Below, in pieces: positions 901-36,487 of a stretch of 36,487 nucleotides of DNA. The notes under the pieces are model-generated. The model was not told the origin of the DNA. It was given only the letters and a program-made list of their open reading frames with translations, and made no database searches. Source of the DNA: a virus (lineage: Duplodnaviria; Heunggongvirae; Uroviricota; Caudoviricetes); IMG/VR virus record IMGVR_UViG_2718217885_000004, positions 1 through 36,487 of that record. One strand, given 5' to 3'. Made by a program: the position numbers and the translations under genes. Position 1 is the stretch's first letter; every line of letters begins with the position of its first letter.

Positions 901-1314
901 GATCGTATGTGCCTTTATGATTGGTCTGTAGATAGTGTAGAGCAGAAAACAAAAGGTGGAGTCAGAACAGGATGAAAGTCGGAGGATAAAAAGTCAGTTC
1001 AAGTATGGAGGATTCAGTGGTTACCACCAGGAGCTTGCAATGGGGACAGCGAATACTAACGGCTGCCACCGATAAATTTCAAAAAAGAGCATATGCCTAA
1101 TATTCAACCAAACAGTGGCATCTTAAATATACTATTCCAAATATATTAAAGCCCCCATGGAGTTACCCTGAAGGGCCTCAATGTCCGTAATTCCTACTTA
1201 TGTAGGAAATGTTGTACAGAACATTTATTATAATCCTATTCAATTATAATAATCATGCCATTATTATATTTAAACACTAGAGAGTGTCGTTGGTATTTAA
1301 TGGGGGAAGGTGAG

Positions 1315-1632
1315 ATGAAAAAGATAGCTGCTATATCATTAATTAGTATTTTTATTATGTCTGGTTGTGCTGTGCATAATGATGAGACAAGTATCGGTAA
1401 ATTTGGTCTTGCATATAAAAGTAATATTCAGCGTAAACTCGATAATCAATACTACACCGAAGCCGAAGCTTCTTTAGCCAGGGGCAGAATATCTGGTGCA
1501 GAAAATATAGTAAAAAATGATGCAGCCCATTTCTGTGTTACTCAGGGCAAAAAAATGCAGATAGTTGACCTGAAGACAGAAGGTGCAGGATTACATGGCG
1601 TCGCTCGTCTGACATTCAAATGTGGAGAGTGA
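1315..1632 (+). CDS. yegR: Small lipoprotein (105 aa) with signal peptide and lipobox, YegR-like
   Basis: ATG at 1315 preceded by a purine-rich RBS (gggggaaggtgag). N-terminus MKKIAAISLISIFIMSGC has a lipobox cysteine. AT-rich. The 125-aa track ORF starts at a non-ATG codon upstream. Name is from recalled K-12 gene order and size, not verified. Confidence 0.55.
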   Translation: MKKIAAISLISIFIMSGCAVHNDETSIGKFGLAYKSNIQRKLDNQYYTEAEASLARGRISGAENIVKNDAAHFCVTQGKKMQIVDLKTEGAGLHGVARLTFKCGE

Positions 1633-1790
1633 GAATATTTTTTGGTAAGCATCAAACATGCGCGTTCTGGTTGTGCTTAGCCGGAACCTGTGCGAGCACG
1701 ATGCCGTTACGTGAAAGGCATCGTGCTATGAAGGGAGATTCTATCGATGTGGTCAATGGAAGACGGTGACCAGGGATAGGGCTTATGCAT

Positions 1791-1817
1791 AAAAAATAAG
1801 CCCGTGTAAGGGAGATT
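1791..1817. repeat. attL core, 27-bp direct repeat aaaaaataagcccgtgtaagggagatt
   Basis: Exact 27/27 identity with 34955-34981; flanking bases diverge immediately on both sides. Lies next to the int 3' end. Length matches the 27-bp core I recall for P2. Confidence 0.8.
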
Positions 1818-12073: not shown

Positions 12074-13845
12074 CAGTAAAACTCCAGAATGGTGGATGTC
12101 AGCGGGGTGCTGATACCGGCGGTGAGTGGCTCATTTAACAGGGCGTGCATGGTCGCCCAGGCGAGGTCGGCGTGGCTGGCTTCCTCGCTGCGGCTGGCCT
12201 CATAGGTGGCGCTGCGTCCGCTGCTGGTCATGGTCTTGCGGATAGCCATAAACGAGCTGGTGATGTCGGTGGCGCTGACGTCGTATTCCAGACAGCCACG
12301 GCGGATAACGTCTTTTGCCTTGAGCACCATTGCGGTTTTCATTTCCGGCGTGTAGCGGATATCACGCGCGGCGGGATAGAACGAGCGCACGAGCTGGAAC
12401 ACGCCGACACCGAGGCCGGTGGCATCAATTCCGATGTATTCGACGTTGTATTTTCCGGTGAGTTTGCGGATGGATTCAGCCTGGGTGGCAAAGTCCATGC
12501 CTTTCCACTGGTGACGCTCAAGTATTCTGAATTTGCCACCGGCCACCACCGGCGGTGCCAGTACCACGCATCCGGCGCTGTCGCCACGGTGTGACGGGTC
12601 GTAACCAATCCATACCGGGCGGGAGCCGAACGGATTCGCGGCAAACGGCGCATAGTCTTCCCATTCTTCCAGCGTGTCGACCATGCAGCGTTGCAGCTCC
12701 TCGAACGGGAACACCGACGCCTTGTCGTCAACAAATTCACACATGAACAGGTTTTTAAAATCGTCGGCGCTGTTTTCACGTTTGAGCTGCTCAATGTCGA
12801 ACAGTGTGCAGCCACCTTTCAGGGCATCTTCAATGGTGACAATCTGCCGCCACTGACCGTCCGCACAGAGAAGACCTCCGGCAAGGGCGTTATGACTGAC
12901 GTCGATTTCCACGCGTTCGGCGGCGCTGGCGCGTCCCCGGTTGAACAGTTCACCTGACCAGAACGGGTAGGCGTCGTGCGCCAGCGTGGACGGGGTGGAG
13001 AAATAGGTCGAGCGCAGGTGACTCTGTGAGGCCATACCTGATGCCACCTTACGCAGTACCTGAAAATTCGGGATCCAGAAAATCTCGTCGACGTACAGGT
13101 CGCCGTTATGGCTCTGCGCGGTGTTGGAGTTGGTGCCGAGAAAAATCAGTTTTGCGCCGTTATTGCCCAGGACAATCGGGTCACCGGTCAGGTCAACATC
13201 AACCAGACGGGCAAAGGCGATGATGTATTCACGGAACACATACGCCTGCGTTTTACTGGCCGACAGAAAAATCTGGTTATGACCGGTTTTCAGGGCGCGC
13301 AGCAGCGCCTCGCGGGAAAAATAAAACGTCGCGCCAATCTGGCGGGATTTCAGGATATCGCGGATGCGGTGCTCAAGCCCGGCGCGATACCAGTGCAACT
13401 GATAGTCGAAAGACTGCTCAAAGAAAATCTGCTCCAGCTTTTCGATGGCCTCGTCACTGAAAAAATTCTTTTTCGGTTTGCGACGCCCGCCTTTGTTGCG
13501 GTTAGCGACGTTCGGATTAAGGTCTGCCTCGTTGCCGGTCTGACTGTAGCGGTTTACCCGTGCCAGTCGTTCAATCTGGCGTCCCAGCAGGTCAATTTCC
13601 TTGAAGTCACCGCCGGTTTTCTGCGGTTTGATGATGAGCTGGGTCAGTCGCGCTTCCAGACTCATTTCGACACGGCTGATGGGGGCAACGCTGTCCCAGC
13701 CGTCGCGCTGTTTCCAGCTCTGCACCGTCGGACGTTTCATCTGCAACATGGCGGCAATCTGCGGCACGGAAAACCCCTGCCAGTACAGCAGCGCCGCCTG
13801 ACGACGCGGGTCGTGTAAAAGAGTGGTGTCTGTGGTGATGGTCAT
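12073..13845 (-). CDS. P: Terminase large (ATPase) subunit, P2 gpP-like, 590 aa
   Basis: Likely start at the ATG giving MTITTDTTLL (590 aa, as in P2 P). The track ORF extends 10 codons further upstream. Confidence 0.85.
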   Translation of the reverse strand: MTITTDTTLLHDPRRQAALLYWQGFSVPQIAAMLQMKRPTVQSWKQRDGWDSVAPISRVEMSLEARLTQLIIKPQKTGGDFKEIDLLGRQIERLARVNRYSQTGNEADLNPNVANRNKGGRRKPKKNFFSDEAIEKLEQIFFEQSFDYQLHWYRAGLEHRIRDILKSRQIGATFYFSREALLRALKTGHNQIFLSASKTQAYVFREYIIAFARLVDVDLTGDPIVLGNNGAKLIFLGTNSNTAQSHNGDLYVDEIFWIPNFQVLRKVASGMASQSHLRSTYFSTPSTLAHDAYPFWSGELFNRGRASAAERVEIDVSHNALAGGLLCADGQWRQIVTIEDALKGGCTLFDIEQLKRENSADDFKNLFMCEFVDDKASVFPFEELQRCMVDTLEEWEDYAPFAANPFGSRPVWIGYDPSHRGDSAGCVVLAPPVVAGGKFRILERHQWKGMDFATQAESIRKLTGKYNVEYIGIDATGLGVGVFQLVRSFYPAARDIRYTPEMKTAMVLKAKDVIRRGCLEYDVSATDITSSFMAIRKTMTSSGRSATYEASRSEEASHADLAWATMHALLNEPLTAGISTPLTSTILEFY

Positions 13846-13914
13846 GAATACCTCGCCGTGATGAATACACGGCAAGGCTACTGAGTCGCGCCCCGCGATT
13901 CGCTAAGGTGCTGT

Positions 13915-13932
13915 TGTGTCAGTGATAAGCCA
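13915..13932. promoter_or_regulatory. Possible Ogr-type activator site (imperfect TGT-N12-CCA) in the divergent P/O late promoter region
   Basis: One mismatch to the TGT-N12-ACA dyad recalled for P2 late promoters. Spacing to both divergent start codons is plausible for a -55 centred site. Confidence 0.3.
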
Positions 13933-14018
13933 TCCGGGACTGATGGCGGAGGATGCGCATCGTCGGGAAACTGATGCCGACATGTGACTCCTCTAATCAC
14001 TATTCAGGACTCCTGACA

Positions 14019-14873
14019 ATGGCAAAAAAAGTCTCAAAATTCTTTCGTATCGGCGTTGAGGGTGACACCTGTGACGGGCGTGTCATCAGTGCGCAGGATA
14101 TTCAGGAAATGGCCGAAACCTTTGACCCGCGAGTCTATGGTTGCCGCATTAACCTGGAACATCTGCGCGGCATCCTGCCTGACGGTATTTTTAAGCGTTA
14201 TGGCGATGTGGCCGAACTGAAGGCCGAAAAGATTGACGATGATTCGGCGCTGAAAGGCAAATGGGCGCTGTTTGCGAAAATCACCCCGACCGATGACCTT
14301 ATCGCGATGAACAAGGCCGCGCAGAAGGTCTACACCTCAATGGAAATTCAGCCGAACTTTGCCAACACCGGCAAATGTTATCTGGTGGGTCTGGCCGTCA
14401 CCGATGACCCGGCAAGCCTCGGCACGGAATACCTGGAATTCTGCCGCACGGCAAAACACAACCCCCTGAACCGCTTCAAATTAAGCCCTGAAAACCTGAT
14501 TTCAGTGGCAACGCCTGTTGAGCTGGAATTTGAAGACCTGCCTGAAACCGTGTTCACCGCCCTGACCGAAAAGGTGAAATCCATTTTTGGCCGCAAACAG
14601 GCCAGCGATGACGCCCGTCTGAATGACGTGCATGAAGCGGTGACCGCTGTTGCTGAACATGTGCAGGAAAAACTGAGCGCCACTGAGCAGCGCCTCTCTG
14701 AGATGGAAACCGCCTTTTCTGCACTTAAGCAGGAGGTGACTGACAGGGCGGATGAAACCAGCCAGGCATTCACCCGCCTGAAAAACAGTCTCGACCACAC
14801 CGAAAGTCTGACCCAGCAGCGCCGCAGCAAGGCCACCGGTGGTGGCGGTGACGCCCTGATGACGAACTGCTGA
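14019..14873 (+). CDS. O: Capsid scaffolding protein, P2 gpO-like, 284 aa
   Basis: ATG at 14019 (MAKKVSKFFRIGVEGD). Length equals P2 O; precedes the major capsid gene. Confidence 0.85.
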   Translation: MAKKVSKFFRIGVEGDTCDGRVISAQDIQEMAETFDPRVYGCRINLEHLRGILPDGIFKRYGDVAELKAEKIDDDSALKGKWALFAKITPTDDLIAMNKAAQKVYTSMEIQPNFANTGKCYLVGLAVTDDPASLGTEYLEFCRTAKHNPLNRFKLSPENLISVATPVELEFEDLPETVFTALTEKVKSIFGRKQASDDARLNDVHEAVTAVAEHVQEKLSATEQRLSEMETAFSALKQEVTDRADETSQAFTRLKNSLDHTESLTQQRRSKATGGGGDALMTNC

Positions 14874-24093: not shown

Positions 24094-26388
24094 ATGAGCA
24101 CAAAATTCAGAACCGTTATCACCACTGCCGGTGCAGCAAAGCTGGCAGCGGCAACCGCACCGGGAGGGCGGAAGGTCAACATTACCACGATGGCCGTCGG
24201 GGATGGCGGTGGTAAATTGCCTGTCCCGGATGCCGGACAGACCGGGCTTATCCACGAAGTCTGGCGACATGCGCTGAACAAAATCAGCCAGGACAAACGA
24301 AACAGTAATTATATTATCGCAGAGCTGGTTATTCCGCCGGAGGTGGGCGGTTTCTGGATGCGTGAACTTGGCCTGTACGATGATGCGGGAACGCTAATTG
24401 CCGTGGCGAACATGGCCGAAAGTTATAAGCCAGCCCTTGCCGAAGGCTCAGGGCGTTCGCAGACCTGCCGCATGGTCATCATCGTCAGCAGTGTGGCCTC
24501 AGTGGAGCTGACCATTGACACCACAACGGTGATGGCAACGCAGGATTACGTTGATGACAAAATTGCAGAACATGAACAGTCACGACGTCACCCTGACGCC
24601 TCGCTGACCGCAAAAGGTTTTACTCAGTTAAGCAGTGCGACCAACAGCACGTCTGAAACACTGGCTGCAACGCCGAAAGCGGTAAAGACCGCCTATGACC
24701 TTGCTAACGGGAAATATACCGCGCAGGATGCCACCACCGCGCGAAAAGGCCTTGTTCAGCTCAGTAGTGCGACTAACAGCACGTCTGAAACGCTCGCCGC
24801 AACGCCGAAAGCGGTAAAGGCCGCGTATGACCTTGCTAACGGGAAATATACCGCACAGGACGCCACCACAGCGCGAAAAGGTCTTGTCCAGCTCAGTAGC
24901 GTCACCAACAGCGATTCTGAAACGCTTGCGGCAACACCAAAGGCGGTTAAGACAGCGTATGACCTTGCTAACGGGAAATACACTGCACAGGATGCCACCA
25001 CGGCGCGAAAAGGTCTTGTCCAGCTCAGTAGCGCCACCAACAGTGATTCTGAAACCCTCGCGGCAACGCCAAAAGCAGTGAAGTCTGCCTATGACAATGC
25101 TGAAAAACGTCTTCAGAAAGATCAGAACGGTGCGGATATTCCGGGAAAGGATACCTTCACGAAAAATATCGGTGCCTGTCGTGCTTATAGCGGCGCTTTG
25201 AGCACTGAAGCCGGAAACTGGACAACCGCTCAGTTTATTGAATGGCTGGATTCCCGTGGTGCATTTAATCATCCGTACTGGATGTGCAAAGGCTCCTGGT
25301 CATATGCAAATAACAAAATCATTACGGATACCGGATGTGGTGATATCCACCTGGCTGGTTGTGTCGTCGAGGTCATGGGAACAAAATCTGCAATCACCAT
25401 CCGAGTGACAACGCCGACAACATCAAGTGGTGGCGGTACAACCAGCGCGCAATTCACTTACATTAATCATGGGGACGGCTACTCCCCCGGCTGGCGTCGT
25501 GACTGGAATCGTCAGGGCGACGCAATGACCGGAACGATTAATCAGGACGGCGGAAGCCAGAATACCTATATGTCTACGGCCTTATGTTCAGGCACCAGAG
25601 GCGGCAAAAAATATCTCAGAAAGTTTCGTGGTGGAGAAGGAGACACTATCTGGCATGAAACAGTACAGGGCGGGGTTGTTCGCTGGGCGACTGGTAATAC
25701 TGATGCTCAGGAAGAATTATCACTCAGCTCCGCTTATGGTCTCCGTTCAAGAGGTGAGATTACATCAAGCAGTGCTAATGGTCTGCGCATTGCTTATGGC
25801 AATTATGGATTCTTTATCAGGAATGATGGCAGCAGCACTTATTTTATGTTGACTAAATCAGGTGACAGATTAGGCACTTATAATAATTTAAGACCACTGA
25901 TTATAAATGATGCCACGGGTGCTGTATCAATGGGGCATGGCCTGAGTGTTACTGGTGATATTGTCTCAAGTACCAAAGTACGTGCCGGTAGCGGGAAAAA
26001 ATTCACGGTCAGCAGCAGTAATACATCCACGAAGGAAGCCGCATTCAATTTGTGGGGAAACTCAAGTCGTCCGGTGGTGGCTGAATTAGGTGATGATGCA
26101 GGCTGGCATTTTTACAGTCAGAGAAATACAGATAACAGCATCACTTTTGCTGTTAACGGTCAGGTATCACCATCTAACTATAGTAATTTTGATTCCCGTT
26201 ATGTACGCGATATCCGGCTTGGGACTCGAGTTGTCCAGACCATGCAGAAAGGGGTGATGTATGAGAAAGCAGGGCACGTAATTACCGGGCTTGGTATTGT
26301 CGGTGAAGTCGATGGTGATGATCCCGCAGTATTCAGACCAATACAAAAATACATCAATGGCACATGGTATAACGTCGCACAGGTGTAA
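24094..26388 (+). CDS. H: Tail fiber protein, P2 gpH-like, 764 aa, with internal tandem repeats
   Basis: Conserved N-terminal part follows I; contains four 44-aa repeats. Longer than the 669 aa I recall for P2 H. Confidence 0.85.
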   Translation: MSTKFRTVITTAGAAKLAAATAPGGRKVNITTMAVGDGGGKLPVPDAGQTGLIHEVWRHALNKISQDKRNSNYIIAELVIPPEVGGFWMRELGLYDDAGTLIAVANMAESYKPALAEGSGRSQTCRMVIIVSSVASVELTIDTTTVMATQDYVDDKIAEHEQSRRHPDASLTAKGFTQLSSATNSTSETLAATPKAVKTAYDLANGKYTAQDATTARKGLVQLSSATNSTSETLAATPKAVKAAYDLANGKYTAQDATTARKGLVQLSSVTNSDSETLAATPKAVKTAYDLANGKYTAQDATTARKGLVQLSSATNSDSETLAATPKAVKSAYDNAEKRLQKDQNGADIPGKDTFTKNIGACRAYSGALSTEAGNWTTAQFIEWLDSRGAFNHPYWMCKGSWSYANNKIITDTGCGDIHLAGCVVEVMGTKSAITIRVTTPTTSSGGGTTSAQFTYINHGDGYSPGWRRDWNRQGDAMTGTINQDGGSQNTYMSTALCSGTRGGKKYLRKFRGGEGDTIWHETVQGGVVRWATGNTDAQEELSLSSAYGLRSRGEITSSSANGLRIAYGNYGFFIRNDGSSTYFMLTKSGDRLGTYNNLRPLIINDATGAVSMGHGLSVTGDIVSSTKVRAGSGKKFTVSSSNTSTKEAAFNLWGNSSRPVVAELGDDAGWHFYSQRNTDNSITFAVNGQVSPSNYSNFDSRYVRDIRLGTRVVQTMQKGVMYEKAGHVITGLGIVGEVDGDDPAVFRPIQKYINGTWYNVAQV
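24607..25095 (+). repeat. In-frame tandem repeat inside H: about 3.7 copies of a 132-bp (44-aa) unit
   Basis: Period of 132 bp measured between unit starts at 24607, 24739, 24871 and 25003. Units are near-identical at protein level with synonymous differences. Confidence 0.85.
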
Positions 26389-34863: not shown

Positions 34864-34890
34864 AAAGCCCCTCAGTCGAGGGGCTTTTTT
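34864..34890 (+). terminator. Rho-independent terminator after ogr
   Basis: Stem aaagcccctc / gaggggcttt with loop agtc, followed by a six-T run. Confidence 0.75.
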
Positions 34891-34895
34891 GTCGA

Positions 34896-34915
34896 TGTGG
34901 TCAATGTGTGGACGT
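34896..34915. promoter_or_regulatory. Candidate Int arm-type binding sites (P arm): tgtggtca and tgtggacg with 11-bp period
   Basis: Direct repeats of TGTGG(A/T)C with the same 11-bp spacing as the pair at 1906-1926. Confidence 0.4.
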
Positions 34916-34954
34916 GACCAGAAATAAATCCTTTTATTTCAATTTGTTGTACGT

Positions 34955-34981
34955 AAAAAATAAGCCCGTGTAAGGGAGATT
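34955..34981. repeat. attR core, 27-bp direct repeat aaaaaataagcccgtgtaagggagatt
   Basis: Exact copy of 1791-1817; lies after the ogr terminator. Confidence 0.8.
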
Positions 34982-35125
34982 ACACAGGCTAAGGAGGTGG
35001 TTCCTGGTACAGCTAGCATTTTATGGGTTATGTTTTTCAGCGAAACGGATGATAACCTTAATAAATGCAGCTGTATGTGATCGGTTTCTAAGAATTTTCC
35101 ATCCGGGAAAAATAATCGAAATTAA

Positions 35126-36487
35126 TCACTTACCGTGGGGATTACGCGTGGTTTCCCCGGAGAAATTACGCATCAGCAGCGCGTAATTGAGCTCAAGATC
35201 CTGCGGGACCGGGAGCCACACAGTATAACCATCGCCTGGTGCTATCGGCATAGCTTCGCCTTTGGCGTTTTCCATGTGCTCAAGGGTAAAATTAATGTTG
35301 CCTTGCGGCGTCATCAGCTCAAGGCTGTCGCCAACGGAGAATTTATTTTTCACCGCTACCGCCGCGAGGTCCCCCTTGCGCTCACCGGTAAACTCACCAA
35401 CAAACTGCTGGCGGTCAGAAACTGAATAACCGTATTCGTAGTTCTGATAATCGTCGTGAGTATGACGACGCAGGAAACCTTCGGTATAGCCACGATGCGC
35501 CAGACCTTCCAGAGTTTCCAGCAGGCTGGTATCGAACGGTTTTCCCGCAGCGGCGTCATCGATAGCTTTGCGGTAAACCTGTGCGGTGCGTGCACAATAG
35601 TAGAAAGATTTGGTACGACCTTCGATTTTCAGCGAATGCACGCCCATTTTGGTCAGGCGTTCTACATGGGCGATGGCGCGCAGATCTTTCGAGTTCATGA
35701 TGTAAGTGCCGTGCTCATCTTCAAACGCGGTCATATACTCGCCCGGACGCTGGGCCTCTTCGATCATAAACACTTTGTCGGTTGGTGCGCCGATACCCAG
35801 CGTCGGCTCAACATTTTGCACCGGAATCGGCTCGTACTTGTGTACGATGTTGCCAACATCATCTTCTTTCCCTTCCTGGACGTTGTACTCCCAGCGGCAG
35901 GCGTTGGTGCAGGTGCCCTGGTTCGGGTCGCGCTTGTTGATATAGCCAGAGAGCAGGCAGCGACCGGAGTAGGCCATGCACAGCGCGCCGTGAACGAAGA
36001 TCTCGATCTCCATATCCGGCACCTGATTGCGGATCTCTTCAATCTCTTCCAGCGACAGCTCGCGAGAGAGGATCACGCGGGTCAGGCCCATTTGCTGCCA
36101 GAATTTCACCGTCGCCCAGTTCACGGCGTTAGCCTGCACCGAAAGGTGGATCGGCATTTCAGGGAAGTGCTCACGCACCAGCATAATCAGCCCTGGATCG
36201 GACATAATCAGCGCATCCGGCCCCATTTCCACCACCGGTTTCAGGTCACGGATAAAGGTTTTCAGCTTGGCGTTGTGCGGTGCAATGTTGACCACGACAT
36301 AAAACTTTTTCCCCAGCGCGTGGGCTTCATTGATGCCGAGCTGAAGATTTTCGTGGTTGAATTCGTTGTTGCGCACACGCAGGGAATAACGCGGCTGGCC
36401 CGCATAAACAGCATCTGCGCCATAAGCGAAAGCGTAACGCATATTTTTCAGCGTTCCCGCCGGGGAAAGGAGTTCCGGTTTAAACAT
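35126..36487 (-). CDS. yegQ: Peptidase U32-family protein YegQ (tRNA hydroxylation protein), 453 aa
   Basis: Complete ORF whose ATG is the last three bases of the window. Product begins MFKPELLSPAG. Recognised as E. coli YegQ from memory. Confidence 0.85.
   Translation of the reverse strand: MFKPELLSPAGTLKNMRYAFAYGADAVYAGQPRYSLRVRNNEFNHENLQLGINEAHALGKKFYVVVNIAPHNAKLKTFIRDLKPVVEMGPDALIMSDPGLIMLVREHFPEMPIHLSVQANAVNWATVKFWQQMGLTRVILSRELSLEEIEEIRNQVPDMEIEIFVHGALCMAYSGRCLLSGYINKRDPNQGTCTNACRWEYNVQEGKEDDVGNIVHKYEPIPVQNVEPTLGIGAPTDKVFMIEEAQRPGEYMTAFEDEHGTYIMNSKDLRAIAHVERLTKMGVHSLKIEGRTKSFYYCARTAQVYRKAIDDAAAGKPFDTSLLETLEGLAHRGYTEGFLRRHTHDDYQNYEYGYSVSDRQQFVGEFTGERKGDLAAVAVKNKFSVGDSLELMTPQGNINFTLEHMENAKGEAMPIAPGDGYTVWLPVPQDLELNYALLMRNFSGETTRNPHGK

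Follow-up and report, generated by a model that had tools for sequence, protein, structure and literature searches.

We consider it probable, at roughly 80%, that positions 986–1790 of the window (the whole 36,487-nt stretch of DNA analysed here, IMG/VR record IMGVR_UViG_2718217885_000004) are the eroded remnant of an older P2-like integrated element, made up of an AT-rich stretch, the gene yegR and the flank that follows it. The resident prophage would thus sit in the attachment site of a decayed relative, as a preliminary description of the sequence had proposed, and the proposal now draws on related species that have no counterpart of 986–1790 and on an apparent decayed attL at the left end of this segment. 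Since no phage gene was found within 1044–1743, the label 'P2-like' is derived only from its two ends, with about 60 nt on the left and 30 nt on the right.

The ogr–attP region of the resident prophage is 99.3% identical to that of P2 (AF063097), and the P2 core corresponds to the loop, the 3′ stem half and the T-tail of the terminator of cyaR, a small RNA gene. This core, which we take to be 'locI', the primary attB of P2, behaves as expected of that site, being identical to the P2 core at 27 of 27 positions and serving P2-type phages at the 3′ end of cyaR; in strains with an empty site, the same 27 nt double as the right-hand core of the ancient element. Rfam searches (the whole window at the gathering threshold, and 1000–2000 at E ≤10) returned cyaR as the sole match and nothing in the flank. 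Within the prophage, 24612–25101 consists of three overlapping copies of a 226-nt unit spaced by 132 nt and 80–85% identical, probably a repeat within a structural gene.

Table 1. Features of the window relevant to the left junction, in order of position.
Feature	Position	Strand	Remarks
yegS	1–900	−	Leftmost gene of the window
Ancestral yegS–cyaR spacer	901–985		Base-for-base alignment with the 85-nt spacer of E1V33; yegS upstream region
Putative decayed left core	986–1014	+	20/29 match to 1789–1817; starts exactly at the insertion boundary
Putative decayed P′ arm, start	1015–1043	+	21/30 alignment columns match 1818–1847
AT-rich non-coding interior	1044–1314		GC 30–41%; upstream of yegR
yegR	1315–1632	+	Stop codon 1630–1632; RefSeq annotation; 105-aa predicted lipoprotein
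Flank between yegR and core	ends 1790		158 nt
Proximal flank	1633–1694		Holds the 1637/1638 point and the 12-nt lipobox repeat
Hairpin	1695–1727		11-bp perfect stem, 1695–1705 pairing with 1717–1727; 11-nt loop
Core fragment (aagggagatt)	1731–1740	+	Identical to the last 10 nt of the core (1808–1817, 34972–34981)
Decayed P arm	1744–1773	+	Distal Int arm-type repeat intact (aTGTGGTCA), proximal repeat degraded
IHF-region replacement	1774–1790		17 unrelated nt in place of the arm's last 33 nt
attL core of resident prophage	1791–1817	+	27 nt; identical to 34955–34981 and to the annotated P2 attP core
ogr terminator	34864–34887	+	Feature transferred from P2 AF063097
Int P-arm site	34892–34919	+	Feature transferred from P2 AF063097
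IHF site	34923–34956	+	Feature transferred from P2 AF063097
attR core of resident prophage	34955–34981	+	Feature transferred from P2 AF063097
cyaR (RyeE) small RNA	34958–35043	−	Rfam RF00112, 100.7 bits against a gathering score of 47
yegQ	35126–36487	−	Rightmost gene of the window

Within E. coli the flank is host-side DNA, as had been described: window positions 1300–1817 are covered over at least 80% of their length in 5381 of the 5426 complete genomes. Junction queries of these genomes found an empty site, with the flank continuing straight into cyaR, in 4207 (78%) and a P2-type attL junction in 816 (15%); strain 158274-3 has such an empty site, its flank being 100% identical to that of the window and running directly into cyaR. 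The AT-rich interior (1044–1314) occurs in 5323/5426 genomes, at 91–100% identity in the records listed, and 25 records fall in the 80–90% identity band. The preliminary description had left its proposal to be judged on whether an empty site would show 1744–1775 to be ordinary host sequence unrelated to phage arms; the segment is indeed ordinary conserved E. coli sequence, but it is neither unrelated to phage arms nor ancestral to the locus.

A blastn search of the flank against phages gave real matches only to records that include host flank, namely AY639599 ('Phage TP'), which is a remnant of the K-12 type, and ON470606, in which yegS and yegR are attached to a prophage. A scan of IMG/VR for the host variant of the arm returned 115 matches, and most of the 80 listed lie within ~450 nt of the locus end; we read these as prophage calls with host flank, and hence as uninformative.

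For the state of the locus in related species we used one genome per species with YegQ, which gave 80 loci among the matches listed; non-coli Escherichia are represented there by two genomes, with E. fergusonii and most cryptic clades outside the set. The start of yegS follows cyaR within 74–144 nt in at least 45 species among these 80 loci, in Klebsiella, Kosakonia, Phytobacter, Citrobacter, Enterobacter, Atlantibacter and other genera as well as in Escherichia sp. E1V33 (locus L123), where the gap is 85 nt and both yegR and the flank are missing. YegR is encoded in none of the 80 related-species loci listed, nor was a flank of the E. coli type found outside E. coli in this set. An orthologous site without the segment is present in E1V33 and 44 other species. 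Homology to E1V33 stops at 985/986, after which E1V33 enters the cyaR 3′ end and E. coli continues into 800 nt found nowhere else. The outgroups without the segment, together with this boundary, identify 986–1790 as an insertion exactly at the P2 core, and the spacer at 901–985 was the B arm of the ancient integration. On grounds of parsimony, the distribution points to gain in E. coli rather than loss elsewhere.

The cyaR–yegS junction also holds inserts of 0.5–4.4 kb in many genera (loci L122, L140, L141, L146, L148, L149, L158, L162, L163 and L166, and further L178, L181, L183, L187, L189, L191, L193–L195 and L197), several with a partial second cyaR 3′ end beside yegS. This second copy lies 78–87 nt from yegS in the inserts of L124, L149, L178, L183, L189 and L194. 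Judged by eye, the insert ORFs appear to encode toxin–immunity pairs, a HigB/HigA-like pair, and HicB-like and DUF523-like proteins. Those of L158, L183 and L194 keep a P2-type P arm and terminator without P2 backbone genes, and across the small inserts found in the other genera, a search for P2 backbone proteins gave one weak match only. Such related arms-plus-cargo inserts could be cassettes moved in trans by P2-type integrases, a reading that we think unlikely. At L122 (CP169086.1, labelled Enterobacter hormaechei), YegQ is 100% identical to that of the window and YegS 74%, and the insert after cyaR matches those of other Enterobacter species; the YegQ identity is either an artefact of the best-segment figure or the mark of a recombinant yegQ.

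The left end of the insertion, which the preliminary description had overlooked, appears from its sequence to be a decayed attL comprising a core and the start of a P′ arm. Without any anchoring, the best local alignment of 901–1314 with the attL region pairs 986–1043 with 1789–1847. Anchored at the boundary, 986–1043 scores 20 against −5.6 ± 3.75 for controls, a value reached by none of 5000 shuffles and none of 6078 real 60-mers, and the P′ part taken separately scores 8 against −3.0 ± 2.7 (reached by 3/5000 shuffles and 3/6240 real 33-mers). The putative left core is 86 nt from the yegS ATG, compared with the 78–87 nt of the second core copy in other genera. Duplication of cyaR was considered as a source of the left relic and rejected: the P′ stretch scores −2 against the cyaR body and 8 against the P′ arm, and because 1015–1043 has no similarity to the cyaR body, the copy is of the attL type and not a duplicated piece of cyaR. 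Beyond 1043, P′ homology is not significant against either P2 (p = 0.27) or E. albertii. The segment is thus bounded by direct repeats of the core at the attachment site, perfect on the right and matching at 20 of 29 positions on the left, and the arms are placed as expected, P′ beside the left core and P beside the right one.

At the right end, the 15-mer tcgatgtggtcaatg occurs both at 1744–1758 and at 34892–34906 next to attR, identical at 15/15 positions, and it runs on into a degenerate second half (gaagacggtgaccag at 1759–1773 against tgtggacgtgaccag at 34907–34921), just as first described. A repeat search of the window aligned 1730–1778 with 34878–34926 at 71% identity without gaps, and with two 1-nt gaps the alignment of 1744–1773 to 34892–34921 scores 38, whereas flank shuffles score 14.7 ± 2.2 and none of 2000 reaches 38. 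Its counterpart in P2 is the protein_bind feature 'Int, P arm' (AF063097 24293–24320, tcgatgtggtcaatgtgtggacgtgacc), a site that carries two TGTGGnC-type repeats. No counterpart of the P2 IHF feature (AF063097 24324–24357) was found in the host flank, and the interval from arm to core is 16 nt shorter than in the phage (the alignment needs a 16-nt gap); the intact arm-type repeat lies about 33–47 nt from the core. The idea that the left junction resembles attP, and so is more than an attB half, does not hold: with one of two Int repeats intact, the IHF site absent and the shortened core interval, the flank lacks what an intasome-capable attP has, and the site, empty in 4207/5426 genomes, works as a plain attB.

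The flank positions 1779–1786 (GGGCTTAT) are complementary to ATAAGCCC at 1796–1803 inside the core and form an 8-bp stem in the predicted fold, which is no more stable than those of shuffles (z = −0.78). In a transcript reading through cyaR, this predicted stem would compete with the 3′ stem half of the cyaR terminator.

The hairpin noted earlier between yegR and the arm is present, with its perfect 11-bp stem; it has a folding energy of −24.6 kcal/mol (z = −4.35, with 0/200 shuffles as stable), and across 13 E. coli alleles the stem is kept (with one G–C to G–T change) and the loop is variable. Its proposed role as counterpart of the ogr terminator did not survive comparison: neither strand has a T-tract beside it, its sequence does not resemble the ogr terminator, and it stops 16 nt upstream of the arm site as against 4 nt for the ogr terminator. 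A terminator scan of 900–1900 returned no matches, and the hairpin is not a canonical terminator. Elsewhere in the flank, a 12-nt direct repeat, tctggttgtgct, is shared by the lipobox codons of yegR (1360–1371) and 1666–1677, with an estimated chance expectation of about 0.02 within 800 nt; in FDAARGOS_1077, the 306 bp between the two copies, amounting to most of yegR, are deleted (L211 3960–4010).

The two ends of the older element have decayed unevenly, the left core being 69% identical to its counterpart and the distal arm repeat intact at 15/15. Under a uniform divergence of 31%, the calculated probability of a clean 15-mer is about 0.4%, and a single event followed by uniform decay therefore fits poorly. 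One way to account for this is with at least two layers: a first element would have left the attL relic, and perhaps yegR, and a later P2-like prophage the P-arm relic, having integrated at the cyaR-proximal core and been deleted from its attL core to its own P arm. Such a deletion would leave a core fragment where aagggagatt is found, at 1731–1740 and 3 nt upstream of the arm, exactly at the expected junction (p about 0.004), and K-12 has a layered deletion product of this kind at the same site. The core-end repeat itself had already been reported and its identity is exact, but its standing as a copy of the core is only nominal, since 85 of 20000 flank shuffles match the core over 10 nt or more in one orientation or the other and the test is post hoc. 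Moreover, just upstream of the fragment, where the rest of the core should lie, 5/17 positions agree with it (counted by eye), so that an extra deletion or replacement would be needed, and 1633–1743 compared with D, ogr, the terminator, the arm and the core gave nothing above shuffles (p about 0.1). We regard layering as possible but rather unlikely.

A second alternative gives the arm repeat a function: bound by the arm-binding domain of P2 Int and kept by selection or repeated conversion, it would help to make the site the preferred attB or alter excision from attL. The repeat is identical at every position to an annotated Int site despite the decay around it, it is invariant in 13 diverse E. 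coli alleles, and P2-type junctions occur here in 816/5426 genomes. The invariant run over the repeat, however, is 26 nt, about what chance predicts by our estimate for ~20 variable sites per 158 nt, and carries no sign of selection; neither the second repeat nor the IHF site survives, and the spacing is shifted by 16 nt; and the same core serves phages with this arm in genera where the B arm lacks such a motif. P2 reportedly uses secondary sites too, and its preference is, according to work by Haggard-Ljungquist, conventionally put down to core identity, which also counts against a functional repeat. That P2 Int binds the repeat in the B arm, so adding to site preference or tuning attL excision, thus seems doubtful to us, and the arm relic is most likely inert for recombination; were it bound, a natural attB would not be 'simple'.

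The direction of transfer bears on a third alternative, in which an ancestor of P2 took up the E. coli flank by imprecise excision and the P arm is host-derived. Phage att cores are generally derived from the host, and homology alone gives no direction. The arm, however, is found identical but joined to an unrelated core in Yersinia phage YpM46, its repeats are kept in Wphi, and it adjoins cyaR in P2-like elements of Trabulsiella, Citrobacter, Scandinavium and Enterobacter, and these occurrences with another core, in Wphi and in several genera indicate that it passed from phage to host. In addition, the repeat motif of the P arm matches the P′-arm repeats, the E. coli-type flank is confined to E. 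coli among the loci sampled, and the P′-like sequence at 1015–1043 would be left without explanation, so that we consider a host origin highly improbable. We give next to no credence to chance resemblance in ordinary intergenic DNA, which the conservation of the flank as host sequence in nearly all E. coli might suggest, since shuffle and real-sequence controls at both ends rule it out and the two matches, themselves collinear, fall on insertion boundaries that were defined independently.

Between its ends, the older element has an atypical composition, with a GC content of 30–40% over 1100–1600 against 43–56% in yegS. Comparison of 1044–1700 with the resident prophage gave scores of 28–29, within those of shuffles (29.2 ± 2.3); no phage genes or gene fragments were found within 1044–1743, and the yegR loci of other taxa show nothing significantly similar to 1044–1314. 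Relatives of YegR number 83 among 5.8 billion proteins, nearly all of them from E. coli or Shigella. A tblastn search with YegR against 50,697 phage records found only two, both including host flank, and records of this kind probably account for its strong PHROG match; no free phage carries homologues, contrary to what would be expected of a phage moron or cargo gene.

Outside E. coli, yegR homologues occupy four other chromosomal contexts. In an Enterobacter, a divergent homologue next to an MFS transporter is flanked by IS elements; other divergent ones have a UDG gene on one side and a dehydrogenase on the other, or adjoin a MerR regulator, and homologues at 76–81% identity lie between a glutaminase gene and nitroreductase–ivy–acs in another enterobacterial group. 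P2 arms were found in none of the four, contrary to the suggested consistent linkage of yegR homologues to P2-like att sites. The view of yegR as relic cargo is accordingly borne out in part: it lies inside the older element as we delimit it, but its homologues are never linked to P2 or to any phage. YegR at 78–88% identity on two long contigs (P0016 and P0043) was considered as evidence of a sister species and rejected, these being E. coli loci with many split genes, which we take for error-prone assemblies.

The homologues at 76–81% identity are followed by a second lipoprotein gene, of 108–110 aa (L218–L220, L224), a rare orphan with 11 clusters that is absent from phages and from IMG/VR. 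Three E. coli alleles (L003, L214 and L005) have 170 extra bp after the yegR stop (L003 2839–3008), at window position 1637/1638, and these encode a decayed N-terminus of the partner lipoprotein, with the lipobox Cys changed to Tyr (tblastn E = 2e-6 in a small search space). This remnant and the partner gene together imply that the ancestral insert contained a two-gene cassette, of which the window allele has lost most of the second gene. A partner-gene remnant was also sought in the window's own flank and rejected, the match being of five residues ('RHRAM', E = 0.44). We infer that yegR and its partner are best read as stranded cargo of the older element or as a later passenger in it.

For 986–1790 read as an eroded P2-like remnant, the order of events that we infer would start from yegQ–cyaR followed, after ~85 nt, by yegS. 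A P2-like element would have entered the cyaR 3′ end in the E. coli lineage, leaving attL (B arm, core and P′ arm) by yegS and attR (P arm and core) by cyaR, and its phage backbone would subsequently have been lost. The P arm would have retained its distal Int repeat while the proximal one degraded and the IHF site disappeared. The left core and P′ arm could drift because neither was under selection, and the right core owes its perfect state to its role as the cyaR terminator. The attR of the older element would in this way have become the preferred attB of present-day P2, and in a lysogen such as that of the window its P arm would now serve as the B arm of the new attL.

If so, P2 in E. coli prefers a site that is not pristine host DNA but an older element's right junction, and yegR, present in nearly every E. 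coli, lies inside that element. The locus would then record serial occupancy of a single att site linked to a small RNA, in three layers (the older element, the ogrK–D′ remnant of K-12 and intact prophages), with cargo genes that have persisted longer than the element that carried them. In practice, tools that call prophage boundaries, and annotations of att sites at cyaR, should allow for arm-like sequence on the host side. No new mechanism is revealed here; this is ordinary genome archaeology, albeit a neat case.

The segment belongs to a familiar class, as a further and older cryptic P2-like prophage remnant. A full-text literature search, with older key papers beyond its reach, yielded no paper in which the yegR segment is interpreted as what is left of a prophage. 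The nearest known case in E. coli is the P2 remnant of K-12 (ogrK and yegZ, ogr–D′), said to have been originally described by Barreiro and Haggard-Ljungquist in 1992, which derives from the same phage family at the same cyaR/locI site and likewise reflects an internal deletion that left att-proximal pieces. Read from the flank, its parts are a truncated attL core, the D′ fragment, ogrK, the P arm and an intact core. In K-12 the truncation of the attL core falls after ...cccgtgta, where the D′ fragment begins, and the A-run before the core in K-12-type flanks has seven A's, not six (L002 2985–3012; also L212). The K-12 remnant is young, being about 95–99% identical to P2, strain-specific and equipped with recognisable genes, whereas the older element lies outside it, is fixed in about 98–99% of E. 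coli and has no phage genes, only ~90 nt of arm and core being recognisable. An earlier paper names cyaR as a P2 insertion site, occupied by 'ogr-D′' in K-12, and scores strain Crooks as having no mobile element there (PMC3032704); Crooks carries only the older element at this site.

Two general classes offer further comparison. CIMEs are att-flanked remnants of integrative elements that keep functional att sites and can be mobilised in trans. The older element is like them in being a short cargo that lies between the attL and attR of a tyrosine-recombinase element and has lost that element's integrase, but its left core is 31% diverged and its arms are fragmentary, and by analogy its mobilisation seems unlikely on both counts. 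The textbook attB of the lambda type has core-type sites only; the cyaR site is used as an attB in the same manner, but with one intact arm-type repeat beside it.

The arrangement is matched in E. albertii NBRC 107761 (L124 11534–14990), which, like the older element, has an attL by yegS, cargo, and a truncated P arm and core by cyaR. Its cargo comprises cdtA, cdtB and cdtC (ORFs 12509–14651), located between the P2-type attL and the truncated P arm, together with IS debris; the P arm is cut after the IHF site and one Int repeat, with cyaR following, and no phage genes were found in the insert. This attL abuts the ancestral spacer directly, from which it follows that the E. albertii insert was acquired independently. 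It is also much better preserved than the E. coli element, with 3 mismatches in the 28 positions of its second cyaR 3′ end and a P′ arm that is almost identical to P2 over ~55 nt, and by analogy it may serve as a precedent for reading 986–1790 as the eroded remnant of a P2-like element.
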